Below are positions 23,238 to 41,756 of a stretch of DNA of 64,000 nt, one piece after another. The stretch comes from Myxococcota bacterium. Its GTDB lineage: Bacteria; Myxococcota; JACRCW01. A program made the translations under genes and the position numbers. The stretch is from assembly GCA_040752415.1 (NCBI GenBank), contig JBFMGU010000003.1, forward strand, positions 1-64,000, given 5' to 3'. Below the pieces are notes generated by a model. That model was given only the letters and a program-made list of their open reading frames with translations, had not been told where the DNA came from and made no database searches. Numbering within the stretch: the first letter of the stretch is position 1; each line of letters starts with the position of its first letter.

Positions 23238-23620
23238 CCCCCAAGAAGGAAGTCAGGAGTCAGAAGTCAGAAGATGGTCCCGCGACGACGACGGGTAGGC
23301 ATCTTCTGAAGGGGCGTTGGAGAAGTTCCGACAAGGGCGTCACAACGGAGAGTGTGGTCCTGCCCTGCTTGTTGCGGCGGGCGAGCCCGCACCTGGCAAT
23401 GTGGCGGCGCCAAGCGCGTCACGAAGCGGGTGGGCGGAAGCAGCGGCGCCCTGGAGTGCGGTGCGAACCGAGCGAGCGGTCGACGACGTGAAGCACCGCC
23501 CTGGATCGGGCCGCTCCGACGGCGCATCCGACAGACCCTCAGAAGGTGCTCTCCCGTCGTCGTCACGGGACCAACCTTCTGACTTCTGACTCCTGACTCC
23601 TGACTTCCTTTTGGGATCCC
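23238..23620. repeat. long imperfect palindrome: ~75-bp inverted-repeat arms (GGAAGTCAGGAGTCAGAAGTCAGAAG...GGTCCCGCGACGACGACGGG...) separated by ~235 bp
   Basis: Left arm 23238-23312 and right arm 23545-23620 are reverse complements with only a few mismatches. The outer parts carry a tandem GTCAGAA/GTCAGGA motif. A nested second inverted pair (GTCCCGCGACGACGACGGG / CCCGTCGTCGTCACGGGAC) sits inside. Intergenic between SulP and a hypothetical gene. Confidence 0.7.
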
Positions 23621-24226: not shown

Positions 24227-24287
24227 GTTGCACGGCTGGTTTCCCCGGGGCGGTCCTGCTAGGAGGGGGCCCGGAACCGAGCAGCCC

Positions 24288-24653
24288 ATGCCCAATCCCG
24301 CCGACATTGCCAAAGTGCGTGCGTTCATTTCCCGCGAGCTGGACACCATCAGTGAGTACGTCGCCATGGCGGAGGCCGCCGAGGACCCCGTGGTGAAGGA
24401 GCTCTTCATCCACGTGGCGCGCGAGGAGAAGGAGCACGTGGCGGAGGGCATGCGCCTGTTGCACGCGCTGGATCCGGATCAGGCCAGCGTGGAGTCGGCG
24501 CACGCGGAGGCGCTGCTGGGCGGGGCGGCGGGCTCGTCGTTGGGGCCGTTGGCCACGCCCGTGTCGTCGGCCGCGTCCACGCCCGCTTCCGCGCCGCCGG
24601 ATGGCCCCGGGAAAGGCACCTTCACCGTAGGCAACCTCCGACGGGGCGCCTGA
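24288..24653 (+). CDS. encapsulin cargo: ferritin-like (EncFtn/rubrerythrin-like) protein with C-terminal targeting peptide
   Basis: Start MPNPADIAK is preceded by AGGAGGGGG. ExxH ferritin-like helices (VAREEKEHVAEGMRLLHALD). Disordered Ala/Ser/Pro linker, then C-terminal ...GKGTFTVGNLRRGA, resembling the TVGSLR-type encapsulin cargo-loading peptide. Immediately upstream of an encapsulin shell gene. Confidence 0.7.
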   Translation: MPNPADIAKVRAFISRELDTISEYVAMAEAAEDPVVKELFIHVAREEKEHVAEGMRLLHALDPDQASVESAHAEALLGGAAGSSLGPLATPVSSAASTPASAPPDGPGKGTFTVGNLRRGA

Positions 24654-24709
24654 CCTCCCACGTTGTTATCTTCCTCCCACCCGCATTCCGGTTTGCACGG
24701 AGACACTCC

Positions 24710-25594
24710 ATGCCCACCCCTCCCAGCTATCACAGCTACACCGGTCACGCCGAGAACCCGCTGACGCCCGACGAGTGGAACAAGATGCGCGCCGCGGTCA
24801 TCGAGAGCGCCACGCGTCACATGGTGGGACGTCGGATCATTGACGTCTACGGTCCGCTGGGGCCGGGCGTGCAGAGCCTCCCGTTCGAGCAGTTCGCCGA
24901 CGCTTCGCTGGGCACCGTGGACCTGATTGGTGAGAAGAGCGAGGGCGCGGTGGTGGCGGAGAGCCGTCGCTTCAAGCCCATCCCGATGATCCACAAGGAC
25001 TTCGTGCTGCACTGGCGTGACCTGGAGGCCAGCCGTGGCGGGGCCTTCCCCCTCGACGTCTCGGCGGCGGCGGGCGCGGCCTCGCTGGTGGCGCGGGCCG
25101 AGGACCGGCTCATCTTCTTTGGCAACGCGGAGCTGGGTTACGACGGGCTCATGAACGCGCAGGGCCGCTCCCACGTGGAGATGCGGTCCTGGGAGCGCAC
25201 CGGCGGCGGGTTCGAGAACGTGGTGGAGGCGCTGGAGGTCCTGCTGGCGCACGGTCACTACGGCCCCTACGCCATGGCCGCCAGCCCCAAGCGCTTTGCG
25301 CAGCTGCACCGCGTCTACGAGAAGACCGGCGTCCTCGAGATCGACTCGATCAAGAAGGTGGTCACCGAGGGCATCTTCCAGTCCACCGTGCTCACCGGGG
25401 ACCAGGCGGTGGTGATTGCCGTCGGGAGCGAGCACTTTGACCTGGCGGTGAGCGTGGACGTGGACCTGGCGTACCTGGGCGCGGAGAAGATGAACCATCC
25501 CTTCCGCGTGCTGGAGTGCGTGGCGCTGCGCATCAAGCACCCCGACGCCATCTGCACCTTCGAGGCGGGTCCGCAGCGTCGTGGCAAGGGCTGA
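24710..25594 (+). CDS. family-1 encapsulin shell protein (HK97 fold, linocin M18-like; EncA-like)
   Basis: 294 aa. About half the residues match M. xanthus EncA as I remember it (GHAENPL..EW, VGRRIxDxYGPLG, KDFxLHWRD, PLDVSAAAGAA, GHxGPYA, YEKTGVLEI, MNHPFRVLE..LRIKHPDAICT). Confidence 0.85.
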   Translation: MPTPPSYHSYTGHAENPLTPDEWNKMRAAVIESATRHMVGRRIIDVYGPLGPGVQSLPFEQFADASLGTVDLIGEKSEGAVVAESRRFKPIPMIHKDFVLHWRDLEASRGGAFPLDVSAAAGAASLVARAEDRLIFFGNAELGYDGLMNAQGRSHVEMRSWERTGGGFENVVEALEVLLAHGHYGPYAMAASPKRFAQLHRVYEKTGVLEIDSIKKVVTEGIFQSTVLTGDQAVVIAVGSEHFDLAVSVDVDLAYLGAEKMNHPFRVLECVALRIKHPDAICTFEAGPQRRGKG

Positions 25595-25630: not shown

Positions 25631-26923
25631 ATGACTGGCGTGGTCTGCGTTGGTGCGCAGTGGGGGGATGAGGGCAAGGGCAAGATCGTGGACCTGCTGG
25701 CGGAGCGCGCCGACGTGGTGGTGCGCTTCCAGGGCGGCAACAACGCCGGGCACACGCTGGTGGTGGGCGGAGTGCAGACGGTCCTGCACCTGATTCCCAG
25801 CGGCGTGCTCCACCCGGGCAAGCTGTGCGTGATTGCCAATGGCGTCGTGGTCGACCCGGACGTGCTGCTCTCCGAGGTGGAGACGCTGCAGGCGCGCGGT
25901 CACCTCAAGGACCCTTCCCGGCTGGCGGTGAGTCACCAGGCACACGTCATCCTGGACATCCACAAGCGCATTGACCTGGCGCGGGAGAAGTACCTGCCGC
26001 GCAAGATCGGCACCACGGGGCGCGGCATTGGTCCGGCGTACGAGGACAAGGCGGCCCGTCGGGGATTGCGCGTCCTGGACCTGATGAAGAAGGAGACCTG
26101 GGCGGACCTGCTGCGCGCGCGCGTGTCCGGTGCCAACACCTATCTCGCGGGCCTGGGCGCGCCCCCGGTGAGCGGTGCCGAGCTGGAGGAGATGATCGAG
26201 AAGACGCGTCGCACCGCGGACGCGCTGCGGCCTTTCGTGCGCGACACCGTGGTGCTGCTGGATGAGCAGCGTCGCGCGGGGAAGCACATCCTGTTCGAGG
26301 GCGCGCAGGGCACGCTGCTCGACGTGGATCACGGCACCTACCCGTACGTGACCAGCTCCAACACAGTGTCCGGCGCGGCGTGCGCGGGGGCCGGCGTGGG
26401 GCCCACGGCCATCCAGCGCGTCATTGGCGTGTGCAAGGCGTACGCAACCCGCGTGGGCGAGGGACCGTTCCCCACCGAGCTCCACGACGAGATTGGCGAG
26501 CGGCTGCGGGGCCGGGGGCTGGAGTTTGGCGCCACGACGGGTCGGCCGCGGCGTTGCGGTTGGCTGGACATGGTGAGCCTGCGTCGGGCGGTGCGTCTCA
26601 ACGGCGTGGACTGCCTGGCGGTGACCAAGCTGGACATCCTCTCCGGGCTGAAGCCGCTGAAGGTGGCCGTGGCGTACGAGGTGGATGGCAAGCGCGTCGA
26701 GGAGTACCCGGCGGACACCGAGGAGCTCGCGCGGGCCAAGCCCGTCTACATCGACATGCCGGGTTTCGACGGTGACGTCACCGGGGCTCGTCGCCTGGAG
26801 GACCTGCCGCCGAACGCGCGCGCGTACGTGGAGTGGATTGCGCGGGAGCTCGGCGTGAAGCTGGCGTTGGTGAGCGTGGGCGCGGGTCGTGGCGAGGAGA
26901 TCGCGCTGGACCCCGTGTTCTGA
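25631..26923 (+). CDS. purA: adenylosuccinate synthetase
   Basis: GAQWGDEGKGKIVD P-loop, GGNNAGHT, KIGTTGRGIGPAYEDK, GATTGRPRRCGWLD are canonical PurA motifs. 430 aa. Confidence 0.9.
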   Translation: MTGVVCVGAQWGDEGKGKIVDLLAERADVVVRFQGGNNAGHTLVVGGVQTVLHLIPSGVLHPGKLCVIANGVVVDPDVLLSEVETLQARGHLKDPSRLAVSHQAHVILDIHKRIDLAREKYLPRKIGTTGRGIGPAYEDKAARRGLRVLDLMKKETWADLLRARVSGANTYLAGLGAPPVSGAELEEMIEKTRRTADALRPFVRDTVVLLDEQRRAGKHILFEGAQGTLLDVDHGTYPYVTSSNTVSGAACAGAGVGPTAIQRVIGVCKAYATRVGEGPFPTELHDEIGERLRGRGLEFGATTGRPRRCGWLDMVSLRRAVRLNGVDCLAVTKLDILSGLKPLKVAVAYEVDGKRVEEYPADTEELARAKPVYIDMPGFDGDVTGARRLEDLPPNARAYVEWIARELGVKLALVSVGAGRGEEIALDPVF

Positions 26924-26960
26924 GGCGTTGCGGTTCTCGCGGTGACGTCGTCATCCCCAA

Positions 26961-27127
26961 CCGGCGCGGCCCCTCCGGTGCCTCCCCGAGGTGACGGCGC
27001 AGCGTGACGCGTGGGTTGGGTTGGGAGGGTGTGGCCGGGGGGCCCGCGGAAGGTTCACTTGTCCCAAGGTGTATTACACCTCAAAGAGAACATGACATGC
27101 CCGGCGAGGGGCCCCCCTCCGCACCGG
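26961..27127 (-). repeat. dispersed ~150-bp repeat, copy A (palindromic core GGTGTATTACACC; conserved CCCTCCCAACCCAACCCACGC block)
   Basis: The reverse complement of 26961-27127 aligns nearly base-for-base with 27261-27385 and partly with 39441-39600. Confidence 0.65.
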
Positions 27128-27260
27128 AACCGGTGACACCGACGGTCACCTGACGCGCTGATCCGGATCACCTGGGTCCGGGCGCACGCGGTGGCAGGCG
27201 GCGCATGCCGCTGTTTCAACGTACCCGAAAGCGGCCGGGTGACGGGGCCCGTGCGGCGAT

Positions 27261-27385
27261 CATGTCAAGTCTTGTTTGAGGTGTAATACACCTTGGGGCA
27301 AGTGGAGCTACCGCGGGCCCCCCGGCCACACCCTCCCAACCCAACCCACGCATCACGCTGCGCCGTTACCTCGGGGAGGCACCCC
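27261..27385 (+). repeat. dispersed ~150-bp repeat, copy B (inverted relative to copy A, ~130 bp spacer)
   Basis: CATGTCAAGTCTTGTTTGAGGTGTAATACACCTTGG...CCGCGGGCCCCCCGGCCACACCCTCCCAACCCAACCCACGCATCACGCTGCGCCG. Lies in a convergent intergenic region (purA 3' end / minus-strand gene 3' end). Confidence 0.65.
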
Positions 27386-27413
27386 AAGCGGCCCATCCCG
27401 CGGCGCGCGAAGG

Positions 27414-28013
27414 TCAGACCATGCCGGGGCAATCACCGAACGCGACGACGGCGTTGCGCGCTTCCTCACTCAGCGTGGTGAGGCGCACGCGCCAGCGACC
27501 CTGGTCCTGCACGGCCATCACCGCCCGCGTGACGACGCCGCCATCCACGCTCTCGATGATGGCGCTGCGGTCCGGCTTGAAGTTGAAGCGGCCGCGGTCC
27601 TCGGGCCACTCGAAGAAGACCACCATGCCCGCCTTGGGCTCCACCGGCCCGCCGCGCGGGTAGTAGAGGCTCATGCGCTGCAGGCAGTGTCGCACGTTGG
27701 CGTGGCGACGGAGGAAGTACCCGGCCTTGGGCGTGTTGGCGCCCCCGCCGATCTTCCGGTAGCCGCCCGGGTCGCGCTGGTAGTCGGCGAGCATGGCTTC
27801 CCGGAGGTGGGGCTCGGCCGCGAAGGGGAAGACGTCCAGGGGCGTGAGGGGGCCGCGGCGCCAGTCCCAGCCGTCGTCGGTGGTGGCGCCAATGAGGCCC
27901 TTGGCACGCTCCAGGAGGCGCTTGCGAGCCATCTCCCGCGCGGGGCTGTCAGCGCCCGAGGACGTCTGGGGAGTGCCGCCAGACTTCATGCCCAATGTCC
28001 TCACCACGGCCAT
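27414..28013 (-). CDS. hypothetical protein
   Basis: 199 aa ORF with consistent GC3 bias. No family recognised. Start codon uncertain (alternatives at MKSGG or MARKRL). Confidence 0.35.
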   Translation of the reverse strand: MAVVRTLGMKSGGTPQTSSGADSPAREMARKRLLERAKGLIGATTDDGWDWRRGPLTPLDVFPFAAEPHLREAMLADYQRDPGGYRKIGGGANTPKAGYFLRRHANVRHCLQRMSLYYPRGGPVEPKAGMVVFFEWPEDRGRFNFKPDRSAIIESVDGGVVTRAVMAVQDQGRWRVRLTTLSEEARNAVVAFGDCPGMV

Positions 28014-29521: not shown

Positions 29522-31399
29522 CTACCGCTGGGCCAGCGCGGACTGGGAGGTCACGTCGCGCAACGCCAGCGCACTGCCAAACCGCGCGCTGTTTCCGACG
29601 TCACCGCTCCGAACGCGCACGTTCGACGGGTCCAGGCCGCGGGGGCCGCCCAGCATCAGGTACACCCGGCCACCGTGCGCATCCTGCGGCGCCCCGACGA
29701 GCACGTCGCTGTACCCGTCGCCGTTGGTGTCGCCCACGCCGCGCAAGGCACCGCCAAACCCCGCGCCCAGCTGTCCGCGGATGCGCGCGGCGGGCTCTCG
29801 CGGCGCGGTGGTGGCGCCGTGGAACACGTGGATGCGACCCGGTTGCTGCGCGCTCTCGGGAATGGCCACCACCACGTCGGCAAAGCCGTCCGCGTTCACG
29901 TCGCCGGCGCCGGACACGTTCATTCCAAAGCCAAGCTCCTCGGGTGCGCCCTCCAGCATCCAGCCGCGGGCATCCACGCCGGTGGCACCACCCAGCTGCA
30001 CGTAGGCCCGCCCGCTCTCCTCGCCCGGTGCGCCCACCACCAGGTCCGCGTAGCCGTCGCCATTGACGTCGCCAGCGCCGGAAAGCGCGGTGCCCAGGCG
30101 GCTCTCCGACGTGGTGCCCATCAGCGTGGTGGCCGCGCGCGGGTCCGTACCGTCGACGGACCCGTGGTGGACCAGCACCATCCCGCGACCCGCGTGCGAC
30201 ACCGGCGCGCCCACCGCGAGATCGCCGTAGCCATCCCCGTTGACGTCGCCAAGCCCGGCCAGCGCGGCTCCAAACCCGGTGCCCGACGAGCCCCGCAGCA
30301 CCGTGGCGGGAGCCGCCTGCAGCCCGGAGGGCATCCCGTGGTGGATGAACACGCGCGCGTCGCCGGGTGAGCCCACCGCCACGTCGCCGTACCCGTCGCC
30401 ATTGACGTCGCCCACGCCGGCCACGGTGGCCGCGAAGCGCGTGCTGCTGTCCAGCGGGCCGCGCAGCGTGGTGGCCGGGGTCGTCGACAAACCGGCGGCG
30501 TTGCCCAGGTACAGGTGCACCACGCCCCGACGTCCCTCTCCCGGCGCGGTCACCAGCACGTCGGAGAATCCGTCGCCATTGACGTCGCCGGCGTGCGCCA
30601 CGGCGTGGCCCAGCCCGGTGGCGCCGGTGGCATGCGGGAGGACAACGGCGTCCGCGTGACCGGTGAGCACGGACGCGCCGCCGAGGAAGAGCTGCACCTG
30701 CCCCGCGCCATCTGCCGCGCCATGCGCGCCCACCACCACGTCGGCGTGGCCATCCGCGTTGACGTCGGTAACGCTGCCCACCGCCACCGCGCGCGGAGCA
30801 CCGTGACGTCCCACCACCAGCTGCCACGTGGGGCTGACCATGGTGCCCACCGCGCGGCCCTGCAGTGCGCGCAGGCGCCAGTAGACCACGCCGGTGGGAA
30901 GGTCGCGCGGCAGCTCCAGCGTCGAGCCCGTGGCGGTCACGGTTTCCGCCGGACATTCGCAGCGACGGTCGTGACAGATCTCCACCTCCACGCCGGTGGC
31001 CGCCACGTCCGCCAGGAAGCGCAGCGTGGGGCGGGTGCCGGTCACCACCGTCGACGACAGTGGCGCCAGCTGGCGCGGGGGCCGGAGCTCCACGCGTTGC
31101 AGCGCGGGTCCTGGCGAGGGCGTTGTCACGGGCCGCACCACGTCGGGACAGCGCGCCGGCGTCACCCGGACCTGGTCGCCGTCACGGGCGTTGAAGACGC
31201 CGCCGGAGCTGGAGACGGTCAGCACCTCACCTTCCGGTGGTGGGGAGCTGGGCGCCTGGCAGGTGCGGTCCTGGCACACGTTTCCCGTCGGACAATCCCG
31301 GTCCTCCCGGCAATCCGGTGGGTTGAGATCCACGGAGCACGCCGTGACGGAGAGTGTGCAGCCCGCGGTGAGAGCAAGGAGCCCCCGGATGGAGAGCAT
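29522..31399 (-). CDS. FG-GAP (integrin-alpha-like) repeat lipoprotein
   Basis: Lipobox LTAGCTLSVTACS. At least seven repeats of GxxGDVNGDGYxDLxVGAP (FG-GAP/VCBS-like). Confidence 0.7.
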   Translation of the reverse strand: MLSIRGLLALTAGCTLSVTACSVDLNPPDCREDRDCPTGNVCQDRTCQAPSSPPPEGEVLTVSSSGGVFNARDGDQVRVTPARCPDVVRPVTTPSPGPALQRVELRPPRQLAPLSSTVVTGTRPTLRFLADVAATGVEVEICHDRRCECPAETVTATGSTLELPRDLPTGVVYWRLRALQGRAVGTMVSPTWQLVVGRHGAPRAVAVGSVTDVNADGHADVVVGAHGAADGAGQVQLFLGGASVLTGHADAVVLPHATGATGLGHAVAHAGDVNGDGFSDVLVTAPGEGRRGVVHLYLGNAAGLSTTPATTLRGPLDSSTRFAATVAGVGDVNGDGYGDVAVGSPGDARVFIHHGMPSGLQAAPATVLRGSSGTGFGAALAGLGDVNGDGYGDLAVGAPVSHAGRGMVLVHHGSVDGTDPRAATTLMGTTSESRLGTALSGAGDVNGDGYADLVVGAPGEESGRAYVQLGGATGVDARGWMLEGAPEELGFGMNVSGAGDVNADGFADVVVAIPESAQQPGRIHVFHGATTAPREPAARIRGQLGAGFGGALRGVGDTNGDGYSDVLVGAPQDAHGGRVYLMLGGPRGLDPSNVRVRSGDVGNSARFGSALALRDVTSQSALAQR

Positions 31400-38904: not shown

Positions 38905-39453
38905 GTGGCGCGCGAGGCGTGGCAAGGTCGGGAGGAAGGGATGAACGCTGACCGGGATGAAGACTTCGAGGACGGCCCTGACGCGGATCGCGCGGCTGCG
39001 GGCTCGAGGACATTGAAATCCATCCGGCTGCCAACGCACCTGGTGCAGGCGGCGGAACGGCAGGCGAAGCACCTGGGGATCGGGTTTGGTGACGTCGTGG
39101 GGGATGCATTGGCGTCGTGGCTGGGCCACCCGCGAGAGCCCCGGACCATGTTGCTGGCCGAGCTTGCCTCATTGCTGCGGACCGCCTTCTACGACGAGTG
39201 TCCGCCCGACGTGGTGCGCCGCCTCTACCTGGAGATCCAGAACACGCCGCAGTTGTGGGATCTCTATACGGCGGCGATCTCGGAACGCGGGCGTCCCGAT
39301 GAGAAACGACGAGAGTCGCTGCACATCGCGATTGGGCGGATGGTGCCCAGGGTCCTCGAGGCCTTCCCGGATGGGCGCGTCGCCACGGCGGAGGAGACCG
39401 AGCTCATCCGAGGTTATCCCCTTCTGTTTCGCACCCGTGTCAACAAGGTGTAA
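38905..39453 (+). CDS. hypothetical protein
   Basis: 182 aa, acidic N-terminus. No family recognised. Its TAA stop lies inside the palindromic core of repeat copy C. Confidence 0.3.
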
Positions 39454-39600
39454 TACACCTCGAACACAACTTGACATGCCTGCCGGAGGGGGCCCCCCGC
39501 GCCCGCCGGCTCTTCCGCGCTCCCCGCGGACACGCCCTCCCAACCCAACCCACGCATTGCGCTGCGCCGACGTTGCACGGTCAAGCACCCAAGGGGACGT
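39441..39600 (+). repeat. dispersed repeat, copy C (core GGTGTAATACACC; CCCTCCCAACCCAACCCACGCATTGCGCTGCGCCG block)
   Basis: Shares the palindromic core, the TTGACATGCC segment, GGGGGCCCCCC, and the CCCTCCCAACCCAACCCACGCA..GCGCTGCGCCG block with copies A/B at 26.96-27.39 kb. Located in the 5' leader of the pyrC-pyrB fusion gene. Confidence 0.6.
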
Positions 39601-39692: not shown

Positions 39693-41756
39693 ATGGCCAC
39701 CCTCCGACTCCCTGGACTGATCGATCCCCACGTTCATCTCCGTGATCCCGGCGCCACCCACAAGGAGGACTGGGACACCGGCACCGCGGCCGCGTTGGCA
39801 GGCGGATTCACGTGTGTGCTGGAGATGCCCAACACGACGCCACCCGTGACGGACGCGGCGTCGTTGTTGCTGAAGCAGCAGGCGGCGCGAGCGCGCGCGC
39901 GATGCGACTACGGCCTGTACCTCGGCGCCGGCGAGTCGAACGTCGACGACGCTGCGTCACTGGCACCGCAGGTTGCGGGGTTGAAGTGCTACATGGACAC
40001 CACGTTCGGTCCATTGAAGATCGACGGGTTGGCGGCGCTGATGGCACACGCGGCGCGCTGGCCGGCGGATCGTCCGCTGGCGTGTCACGCCGAGGGGCGC
40101 AACGTGGCGACGGCGATCCTGGTGGCGCACCTGACGGGTCGCGCGGTGCACATCTGTCACGTGGCGACGAAGGAGGAGATCGAGCTGATCCGTGCGGCCA
40201 AGAACAAGGGCCTGAAGGTGACGTGCGAGGTTGCGCCACATCACCTGTTCCTGACCGCTGACGACGTCAAGGGAATGGGTGGTCGCGGTACGGTGCGCAC
40301 GCCTCTGGCCACGGCGGCGGATCGCCAGGCGTTGCGCAACAACCTGGACATCGTCGATTGTTTCGCCACGGACCACGCGCCGCACACGCTCGAGGAGAAG
40401 GACTCCGAGAAGCCGCCGCCCGGATTCCCCGGTCTGGAGACGGCGCTGCCGCTGTACCTGGCGCTGGTGCGGGAGAAGGTGTTGACGCTGGAGGACCTGG
40501 TCCAGAAGTGCGTCGACAATCCGCGCCGGATCTTCAACATCCCCGCGCAGCCGGAGACGTGGGTGGAGGTGGATCCGGACTCGGAGTGGGAGGCGCGTGG
40601 CAAGGACATGTTCACGCGCGCCAAGTGGACGCCTTTCGAGGGATGGAAGATGCGTGGCCGCATCACGCGCGTGGTGCTGCGCGGCAAGACCGCCTTCCAC
40701 GACGGAAAAGTGCTGGCGCCGCCAGGCAGCGGGCTGGACCTGATCCGTGAGGGCATCCCGGCGCAGCCCACGGAGCAGCTCCAGCGCTCCACGCGGTTCA
40801 CCGCGCCGATGGCGTCGTCGCCAGGCGGCTCGCGGTTCCACAACCAGCACATCCTGTCCATCTCCCAGTTCACACGCTCCGACCTTCAGGACATCTGTGC
40901 CGTGGCCGAGCAGATGCGCACCATGGTGGAGCTGGTGGGCACGTTTGATCTGCTCAAGGGCAAGGTCCTGGCGTGTCTGTTCTACGCGCCGTCGACACGA
41001 ACGTCGTCGTCATTCATCGCGGCGATTGAGCGCCTGGGCGGCTCGGCCATTCCCATCAGCGGCGTGCAGTTCTCGTCGGTGGCCAAGGGAGAGTCGCTCC
41101 CGGACACGGTGCGCACGCTGGAAGCCTACGCCGACGTCATCGTCCTGCGACACTCCGAGACCGGCGCGGCGGCCACGGCGGCACGGTACGTCAAGAAGCC
41201 CATCATCAACGCAGGCGACGGCGTGGGCGAGCACCCAACGCAGGCATTGCTGGACCTGTTCACCATTCGCGAGGAGCTCGGCCGCGTCGACGGGCTCACG
41301 GTGACCATGCTGGGCGACCTGAAGTACGGCCGCACCGTGCATTCCCTGGCGCGCCTGCTCTCCCTCTACGACGTGAAGCTCAACTACGTCTCACCGGAAA
41401 TCCTGAAGATGCCGCCGTCCATCGTCGAGGAGCTGAAGGCGAAGGGCGTGCCGCAGCGGGAGTTCAACTCGCTGGACCCGGTGCTGGCGGAGACCGACGT
41501 GCTCTACGTGACGCGCGTCCAGAAGGAGCACTTCACGGACATGAAGGAGTACGAGTCCGTGCAGGGTTCGTACTCGATCACGTCGGAGACCATGCTGCGG
41601 GCCAAGCCGCGGATGGTGTTGATGCACCCGTTGCCGCGCGTGGGGGAAATCTCCATGGAAGTGGATAACGACCCGCGCGCTGCGTACTTCCGCCAGATGA
41701 ACTACGGCCTCTACGTCCGCATGGCGCTGCTGGCCATGGTGTTGGGGAAAGCATGA
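39693..41756 (+). CDS. pyrB: fused dihydroorotase-like / aspartate carbamoyltransferase (PyrC-PyrB single polypeptide)
   Basis: N-terminal [20 protein letters not shown]...DHAPH is the amidohydrolase/DHOase metal-binding signature. From about residue 380 the sequence reads as ATCase: [12 protein letters not shown] (STRTR carbamoyl-P site), [15 protein letters not shown] (HPTQ), [15 protein letters not shown]. No stop between the two halves. The listed ORF from 39471 has a non-homologous 5' extension; an alternative start is MIRV at 39666. Confidence 0.75.

Follow-up and report, generated by a model that had tools for sequence, protein, structure and literature searches.

Small intergenic repeats and the spacer downstream of purA

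The small repeats that lie between genes are defined either as MITEs, which carry inverted ends, or as REP/BIME elements, in which palindromic units alternate in a mosaic. The terminal repeats of a typical MITE, like the units of REP elements, are much shorter than 143 nt. The Correia elements of Neisseria and the ERIC/IRU and RU elements of enterobacteria are presented in PMC3184786 and PMC10969869 as small, non-coding and bounded by inverted ends. REPs are described as lying typically past the 3' ends of genes, where transcript stabilisation and termination have been proposed as their roles (PMC2817692, PMC3116915).

The locus that we compare with these systems comes from the genome of an uncultured Myxococcota and was analysed in a window of 64 kb, by which we mean the whole stretch of DNA under study (68.6% G+C). 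In this window purA (Pfam Adenylsucc_synt, E = 4e-175) is met by a conserved gene that encodes a 199-aa protein of no known family and converges on it from the opposite strand, and a gene for a radical-SAM enzyme lies beside them. The purA product is 100% identical to NCBI MEW5847325.1 ('MAG: Myxococcota bacterium'), and the next-closest purA sequences share merely 78-82% identity with it. Between the purA stop codon (26921-26923) and the convergent stop codon (27414-27416) there are 490 bp, of which a pair of inverted repeats spans 407 bp. An earlier description of this DNA, made from its letters and here called the sequence-only reading, had placed the pair in an intergenic region 3' of purA between convergent genes, and the gene assignments bear this setting out.

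Like the Correia, ERIC/IRU and RU elements as described in PMC3184786 and PMC10969869, the DNA in the purA spacer is small (~407-490 bp), non-coding and provided with inverted ends; it also shares with them an intergenic position, a presence that varies between relatives, more than one copy and the potential to form a long RNA hairpin. Unlike them, it has no target-site duplication and no known insertion sequence with matching ends, its 143-nt arms amount to 70% of the element where theirs are short terminal repeats, and its third copy is a re-joined subset of modules rather than a full element. With REP, BIME and REPIN sequences it has in common palindromic units in alternating orientation, an extragenic location and mosaic modules (PMC2817692, PMC3116915). 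However, REPs are about 20-40 nt long and number more than 100 per genome, whereas the unit here is ~143 nt and three copies are documented in the window, where no RAYT gene was found and where the repeat has no sequence similarity to known REPs. Bidirectional hairpin terminators also lie between convergent stop codons and have a GC-rich dyad symmetry that can be read from both strands, but the present structure is larger by an order of tenfold, lacks U/A tracts, is absent from relatives and gave a negative result in the terminator scan. The missing U-tract and the negative consensus terminator scan likewise speak against a role as terminator or stabiliser.

Inverted arms, a rearranged third copy and their motifs

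The inverted repeat consists of two arms of 143 nt each, 87% complementary and 121 nt apart (Table 1). When one arm was compared with the other by BLASTN, E was 2e-48, so that the inverted repeat is not due to chance. The pair of ~150-bp inverted repeats proposed in the sequence-only reading is therefore real, although its borders had been drawn 8-20 nt off: copy A had been given as 26961-27127, copy B had been started at 27261 rather than 27241, and the spacer had been estimated at ~130 bp. The copies had been called near-identical, which is accurate for the outer 73 nt of the arms, where there are 2 differences, but not for the inner 70 nt, where there are 16.

Each repeat unit of ~143 nt begins with a hairpin-prone segment, made up of X, a palindrome of 13-17 bp and Y, and ends in a C-rich tail, Z; in the purA 3' spacer the two units face each other head to head. 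The 13-bp palindrome GGTGTAWTACACC, already noticed in each copy by the sequence-only reading, was recovered in both arms. When up to two mismatches were allowed, the window contained three such palindromes against 0.26 expected from shuffled sequence, and none of 100 shuffles reached three. Together with its flanks, AAGGTGTAWTACACCTC, the palindrome is the same in all three copies except for the central A/T, and the motif TGACATG, which starts 12 nt past it, is identical in all three at a place where neighbouring positions vary. The G/C runs that had been pointed out are present, and both arms have an exact copy of the conserved C-rich block CCCTCCCAACCCAACCCACGC, of which none is expected by chance. 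The TTGACATG segment had been assigned to both copies; it is exact in arm B, but arm A carries ATGACATG instead.

The 121-nt centre between the arms is unique, has short palindromes of its own (GGTGAC..GTCACC, GATCCGGATC and GCGGCGCATGCCGC) and contains no convincing open reading frame. Outside the arms, the predicted fold shows imperfect pairing between the right flank and a part of the left one (about 26961-26969), and the first ~8 nt of the right flank (CCAAGCGG) resemble the CAAGGGG that follows the third copy.

Table 1. Positions, in the 64-kb window, of the repeat copies, their motifs and the genes on either side of the inverted pair
Feature	Position	Strand	Remark
purA	25631-26923	+	
Left flank of the extra DNA	26924-26976	.	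purA stop to arm A; no counterpart in relatives
Arm A	26977-27119	minus	Module order on the minus strand X, palindrome, Y, Z
G-quadruplex motif GGGTTGGGTTGGGAGGG, arm A	27013-27029	+	G-rich strand is the purA sense strand, ~90 nt after the stop
Palindromic core GGTGTATTACACC, arm A	27068-27080	.	
ATGACATG, arm A version of TTGACATG	27092-27099	+	
Centre between the arms	27120-27240	.	121 nt, unique; single copy in the window
Arm B	27241-27383	plus	Module order X, palindrome, Y, Z
TTGACATG, arm B	27261-27268	minus	Exact
Palindromic core GGTGTAATACACC, arm B	27280-27292	.	
G-quadruplex motif, arm B	27331-27347	minus	G-rich strand is the sense strand of the 199-aa gene, ~70 nt after the stop
Right flank of the extra DNA	27384-27413	.	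Arm B end to the stop codon of the 199-aa gene
199-aa gene	27414-28013	minus	Converges on purA
Copy 3, module P	39444-39497	+	81-83% identity to the same module in arms A and B
Palindrome, copy 3	39447-39459		In module P
TTGACATG, copy 3	39471-39478		In module P
Copy 3, module Z	39512-39589	+	39512-39569 (58 nt) 86% identical to arms A and B
C-rich block, copy 3	39535-39555		In module Z
G-quadruplex motif, copy 3	39535-39551	minus	G-rich strand serves as template for the pyrimidine operon

A third copy occupies 39444-39589, 12 kb from the pair and 5' of a CAD-like pyrimidine operon, and has the same modules in another order. Its module P comprises the palindrome, 12 nt, TGACATG and then GGGGGCCCCCC; in its module Z the similarity to the arms becomes weaker beyond 39569 and continues out to AAGCACC (39589). 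In arms A and B the palindrome separates TGACATG from Z, whereas in copy 3 both stand on one side of it, a layout that would arise if a complete pair lost the DNA stretching from where X ends in arm A to mid-Y in arm B. An equally good description of the family is a mosaic whose modules can be separated. The three copies at two loci within 64 kb are linked by BLASTN E values of 1e-9 to 2e-48 and by profile matches of 1e-19 to 1e-26, and neither BLAST nor profile searches found further copies in the window, even degenerate ones. Upstream, copy 3 adjoins a gene of 170-182 aa (38941-39453 in its 170-aa form) whose product has an Arc-like ribbon-helix-helix segment (PHROG 6506, E = 3.6e-4) and whose TAA stop falls inside the copy 3 palindrome; downstream, the start codon of a DHOase-ATCase fusion gene lies at 39693, 103 nt past the end of module Z. 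The same locus can also be described as lying between an AIR-synthase-like gene and the DHOase-ATCase gene.

The C-rich sequence "CCCTCCCAACCCAACCC" is the complement of GGGTTGGGTTGGGAGGG, in which four G3 tracts are joined by loops of TT, TT and A (G4Hunter score 2.12), and this motif is identical in all three copies. Judged by sequence, GGGTTGGGTTGGGAGGG conforms three times to the definition of a G-quadruplex motif, with four runs of at least three G and loops of 1-7 nt. In a regular-expression scan these were the only such motifs with loops of up to 3 nt in the window, which is otherwise poor in them: nine with loops of up to 7 nt were found, compared with 23 in mononucleotide shuffles. 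The sequence-only reading had mentioned neither the G-quadruplex nature of the C-rich block nor the third copy. With three copies, the conservation of this block does not significantly exceed chance (permutation p = 0.11), because there are merely 8 differences in the whole 58-nt module.

Cahoon and Seifert reportedly described a G-quadruplex motif, GGGTGGGTTGGGTGGGG, upstream of pilE in Neisseria gonorrhoeae. Like the pilE motif, the one found here has four G3 tracts and short loops and stands alone in non-coding DNA; unlike it, this motif is accompanied by no sign of recombination-based variation, no associated promoter and no silent gene copies. The G-quadruplex-forming repeats of Xanthomonas and Nostoc are described in PMC4692102 as tandem heptamers, whereas here one motif is embedded in a larger unit. 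Literature searches on myxobacterial repeats or G-quadruplexes found nothing specific.

The arms contain mirrored open reading frames of 46-49 aa, in which 25 of 38 aligned residues are identical. We rejected the hypothesis that they are coding: of the 17 nucleotides at which they differ, 5, 10 and 2 are at codon positions 1, 2 and 3, respectively, hence mostly at the first two, and the frame is lost in copy 3. A gene remnant was also rejected, as tblastx against relatives gave the scattered, non-colinear matches that are typical of GC-rich sequence. No tRNA gene was found. There is no turn of the GC skew at the locus that would indicate a replication origin or terminus, and no dif-like architecture was apparent on reading the sequence. 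A retron, an integron attC site and a recombinase core site were set aside in the same way, since no reverse transcriptase or integrase gene is adjacent and, by reading, the core consensus does not fit.

Empty sites in relatives and distribution in other species

The relative L010 shares the gene order purA, 199-aa gene, radical-SAM gene ... uvrC, and three distinct syntenic relatives (L010/L011, L017 and L023) allowed the purA spacer to be compared. The gap between the purA stop and the convergent stop is 7 nt in L010/L011 (TGA + 7 nt + TCA), 3 nt in L017 and 2 nt in L023, in which the junction reads TGA-GT-TCA and which has an encapsulin gene upstream of purA in common with the window. Since the stop codons abut in these relatives and the coding ends of purA and of the 199-aa gene are unaffected in the window, essentially all of the 490 bp is an addition: the spacer is DNA gained in this lineage. 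Empty orthologous sites, as found here, are what is looked for in a MITE. The sequence-only reading had also considered that the two copies might be the only ones and that the region might be ordinary terminator sequence conserved in relatives. An extra copy exists, and the relatives that lack the element have purA and the convergent gene 2-7 bp apart, so neither supposition holds.

At the second locus, L020 and L021 carry the same pyrimidine operon with a different leader, a conserved hairpin followed by a T-run (AGAGAGCC...GGCTCTCT-TTTTT), which is absent from the window upstream of the operon. Copy 3 is not a conserved leader, as it is missing from the orthologous leader in both of these relatives. 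Overall, no trace of the element was found in ~71 kb of relatives' DNA.

Beyond these relatives, a scan for CCCTCCCAACCCAACCCACGC in species-representative genomes (185,579) and viral contigs gave chance matches or none, and so did a scan for the palindrome plus TGACATG in species-representative genomes, JGI metagenome contigs and viral contigs; matches were judged to be due to chance from their low GC content (45%) or their origin in unrelated phyla. BLASTN against phages and plasmids gave only one chance match of 37 nt, and when the concatenated six-frame translation of one unit was compared with 5.8 billion proteins, none scored. As the genome, metagenome, viral, phage/plasmid and protein searches were all negative, these data show that the repeat family is not widespread among other species; the collection scans returned no match to the window itself, and they speak to other species and little to the copy number in its own genome.

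Taken together, these results lead us to favour, with moderate confidence, the view that the inverted pair and copy 3 belong to a new family of small mosaic palindromic repeats that are non-coding, specific to this lineage and akin to MITEs and REP/BIME elements. This kinship is suggested by repetition at two loci, gain in the lineage, lack of coding capacity, modular construction and strong dyad symmetry. As in a MITE, the element is small (a 407-bp pair in 490 bp, where MITEs are under about 500 bp) and non-coding, and its ends are inverted repeats. Copies were found at two loci within the 64-kb window. No target-site duplication was seen: the flanks, ...GGCCCCTCC|GGTGCC on one side and GGCACC|CCAAGCGG on the other, share only CC, and a direct repeat CCCCAA(C/G)CGGC occurs near the ends, with its left copy displaced by 12 nt. 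The terminal 15-28 nt have no second site within the window, and no gene for a transposase, a RAYT or another recombinase adjoins the element. With regard to REP, BIME and REPIN elements, the alternation of extragenic mosaic units is evident in the head-to-head pair and in copy 3, which re-joins P and Z, but the palindromic unit of about 20-40 nt is not, as the unit is ~143 nt and its clean palindrome is just the 13-17-bp core. The suggestion of a small composite or MITE-like element made in the sequence-only reading thus stands as far as the second locus, the empty sites in relatives and the non-coding nature of the DNA are concerned, but not for a MITE proper, which would have a target-site duplication. 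With no target-site duplication or mobilising enzyme found, and with three copies on record, we do not file the element as a MITE or a REP proper.

Alternative explanations and the likely consequence of the insertion

The repeat could instead have arisen by local rearrangement, in which an inverted duplication produced by replication fold-back or template switching was followed by one ectopic recombination 12 kb away, leaving only three copies. Neither a target-site duplication nor a transposase points to transposition, and no copy was detected outside the window in the searches of other genomes, contigs and proteins. Self-complementary G/C runs (GGGGCCCC) at the module borders would be plausible switch points, and copy 3 has the layout that a deletion within a complete pair would leave. 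However, a divergence of 13% between the arms and of 14-19% for copy 3 indicates old events rather than one recent accident, and a dispersed family would more typically account for insertions at two intergenic sites that relatives have empty. We consider a purely local origin unlikely, though it is the alternative that fares best.

A second possibility is that the unit is a cis-regulatory module, with AAGGTGTAWTACACCTC as an operator bound by a dimeric transcription factor, perhaps the adjacent Arc-like protein, the G-quadruplex/C-rich block as a modulator, and purA and the pyrimidine operon as one regulon. Both loci adjoin nucleotide-biosynthesis genes (purA; AIR-synthase-like/DHOase-ATCase), and neither the flanked palindrome nor the TGACATG at a distance of 12 nt changes between the three copies, while neighbouring positions do. 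In addition, copy 3 is in the leader of the pyrimidine operon, where it replaces the hairpin and T-run leader of relatives, and the gene for the Arc-like DNA-binding protein ends within the palindrome. Against this, arms A and B lie 3' of two convergent genes and so have no promoter to control as operators, the homology extends over 54-143 nt, far past any operator, the sequence is missing from relatives at both loci, and no consensus promoter accompanies any copy. To our knowledge none of the operators of NrdR, SlmA and RutR, the parS and matS sites or the GntR-type operators fits the palindrome, and a literature search on its sequence turned up nothing but unrelated primer sequences. The position of two loci beside nucleotide-biosynthesis genes could easily be coincidental, and we judge this regulatory role to be rather improbable, behind a local rearrangement.

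The sequence-only reading had also suggested a pair of structured small RNA genes. Transcribed from the palindrome towards Z, the unit would yield an RNA in which the unpaired C-rich stretch CCCUCCCAACCCAACCC could pair with G-rich ribosome-binding sites; the C-rich small RNAs RsaE and RoxS of Firmicutes would be its analogues. In the predicted folds this stretch is largely unpaired or loosely paired in all three copies, and a downstream stem (CGCA/UGCG) tolerates all three substitutions, two in the loop and one changing an A-U to a G-U pair, on the C-rich strand only. Weak -10-like TAATAC hexamers can also be read within the palindrome. However, single units, in which the earlier reading had proposed to look for a conserved structure, folded as RNA no better than shuffled sequence on either strand (z from +0.27 to -1.71). 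The whole pair folded exceptionally well (z = -21.5 and -17.7 for the two strands) because it is an inverted repeat, and the compatibility of the arms with G-U pairing showed no strand bias (5 vs 3). No Rfam family matched either locus at E <= 1, none reached the gathering threshold anywhere in the window, and the sole match at E <= 5 was a chance one (E = 2) outside copy 3. Scans for promoters and terminators, which covered consensus forms only, found none at either locus, so that a promoter and an intrinsic terminator belonging to the unit are both missing by this measure. The sequence is also absent from all relatives sampled, and a different module lies upstream of Z in copy 3, which means that the promoter context is not conserved. 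With no Rfam family, promoter, terminator, special fold or conservation in relatives in its favour, the proposal of small RNA genes is unsupported, and we rank it as slightly less probable again than a regulatory module.

Very unlikely, in our estimate, is a selected cassette in which a protein-bound palindrome and a strand-specific G-quadruplex together shape transcription around nucleotide-biosynthesis genes. Here the G-quadruplexes would insulate the convergent purA pair at the level of RNA, in both 3' UTRs, and would form a template-strand roadblock in the pyrimidine leader, replacing the ancestral attenuator; the Arc-like protein might recognise the palindrome.

Inverted repeats around a short unique segment form the arrangement of invertible switches, and metagenome assembly is known to produce inverted chimeras, so the layout matches both a switch whose 121-nt centre is flipped by a site-specific recombinase and a chimeric assembly; together these are the least credible explanations, since no recombinase lies nearby and the centre has no consensus promoter, while an artefact would give identical arms rather than arms that are just 87% identical inside a 94-kb contig. 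With 13% divergence between its arms and a place deep in the contig between intact conserved genes, the inverted repeat is not an assembly artefact.

Having weighed these alternatives, we return to the lineage-specific repeat family: the most fitting reading of the 490-bp insertion is a small mosaic intergenic repeat, not seen before but of an ordinary kind, rather than a demonstrated RNA gene. Either transposition in trans or exchange at palindromic G/C runs, through recombination or template switching between them, may have spread such a repeat, and any effect that it has today would be a by-product. A transcript that ran on past the end of either purA or the convergent gene would first encounter an RNA G-quadruplex (GGGUUGGGUUGGGAGGG), next GC-rich hairpins and finally a potential 143-bp duplex. 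These structures may act as a two-way barrier or as a 3'-end stabiliser between genes that almost abut in relatives; from the position and structure of the element, we infer that this is its likeliest consequence.

If the preferred reading is right, the element adds one more lineage-specific intergenic repeat family, from an uncultured, deep-branching member of the Myxococcota. The repeat would then mark a recent change in the genome and explain the long spacer between genes that abut in relatives, and annotators would be cautioned to call neither open reading frames nor small RNAs in this spacer. If the palindrome and the G-quadruplex motif prove to be functional, the repeat would be a portable, structure-forming cassette that rewires the 3' ends and the leader of nucleotide-biosynthesis genes.

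The pyrimidine operon at copy 3

The palindrome of copy 3, the rearranged third copy of the 143-nt repeat family, contains the stop codon of an Arc-like gene, whose protein family we found to be small, with 55 representatives among 1.84 billion proteins, most of them of approximately 150 aa. Downstream lies a gene encoding a DHOase-ATCase fusion. The best full-length homologues of this protein are the eukaryotic CAD proteins of animals (48–59% identity), and ordinary bacterial pyrC/pyrB genes were not among them. Inter-domain gene transfer is one possible origin of the CAD-like fusion, and common ancestry with CAD is another. In the relatives' contigs L020 and L021, the two domains are encoded by separate adjacent genes; next in order come a gene for a fused OMP-decarboxylase/phosphoribosyltransferase and one for DHODH.

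The pyrimidine leaders of L020 and L021 have in common a hairpin followed by a T-run (AGAGAGCC ... GGCTCTCT TTTTT), located 5' of the operon, immediately before the start codon in L020 and ~200 nt further 5' in L021, and this element looks like a transcription attenuator. The leader of the pyrimidine operon in the window was found to be without a hairpin and T-run of this type, and carries copy 3 instead.

Coordinates of the features described in the window and in relatives
Feature	Sequence	Position	Strand	Remarks
Second large inverted repeat	window	23241-23321 and 23527-23615		directly 3' of SulP-type permease stop codon
Encapsulated-ferritin-like cargo and encapsulin shell gene pair	window	24228-25594	+	shell: Linocin_M18, E = 6e-64
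Seven tandem repeats	window	29674-30777		within minus-strand ORF 29522-31399
Arc-like ribbon-helix-helix segment protein	window	38941-39453	+	170 aa; PHROG 6506, E = 3.6e-4
DHOase-ATCase fusion gene	window	39693-41756	+	687 aa; directly 3' of copy 3
Separate DHOase and ATCase genes	L020	3671-6064		Myxococcota-like contig
Separate DHOase and ATCase genes	L021	6001-8173		Myxococcota-like contig
Hairpin and T-run	L020	3875-3916		5' of pyrimidine operon
Hairpin and T-run	L021	5800-5838		5' of pyrimidine operon

Genes on either side of purA

The encapsulin/cargo pair is directly 5' of purA, a linkage also present in two relatives, L018 and L023. The tandem repeats in the long minus-strand ORF, spaced at ~170 nt and 65–83% identical, are probably a repeated protein domain; the gene is missing from the syntenic stretch of the relative L010.

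G-quadruplex motifs and a second inverted repeat

Canonical G-quadruplex motifs are scarce in the window as a whole (9 with loops of ≤7 nt versus ~23 in mononucleotide shuffles), and all three of its short-loop motifs fall within the 143-nt family, arms and copy 3 included.

The ~1-kb spacer between the SulP-type permease gene and the encapsulin operon contains a second large inverted repeat, which has stems of ~75 bp with GTCAGRA heptamer repeats, a predicted RNA fold with z = -9.9, and a possible flanking direct repeat, TCCC(C). This structure is unrelated to the 143-nt family, so that the long palindromic structures between genes in this genome belong to two families or more.
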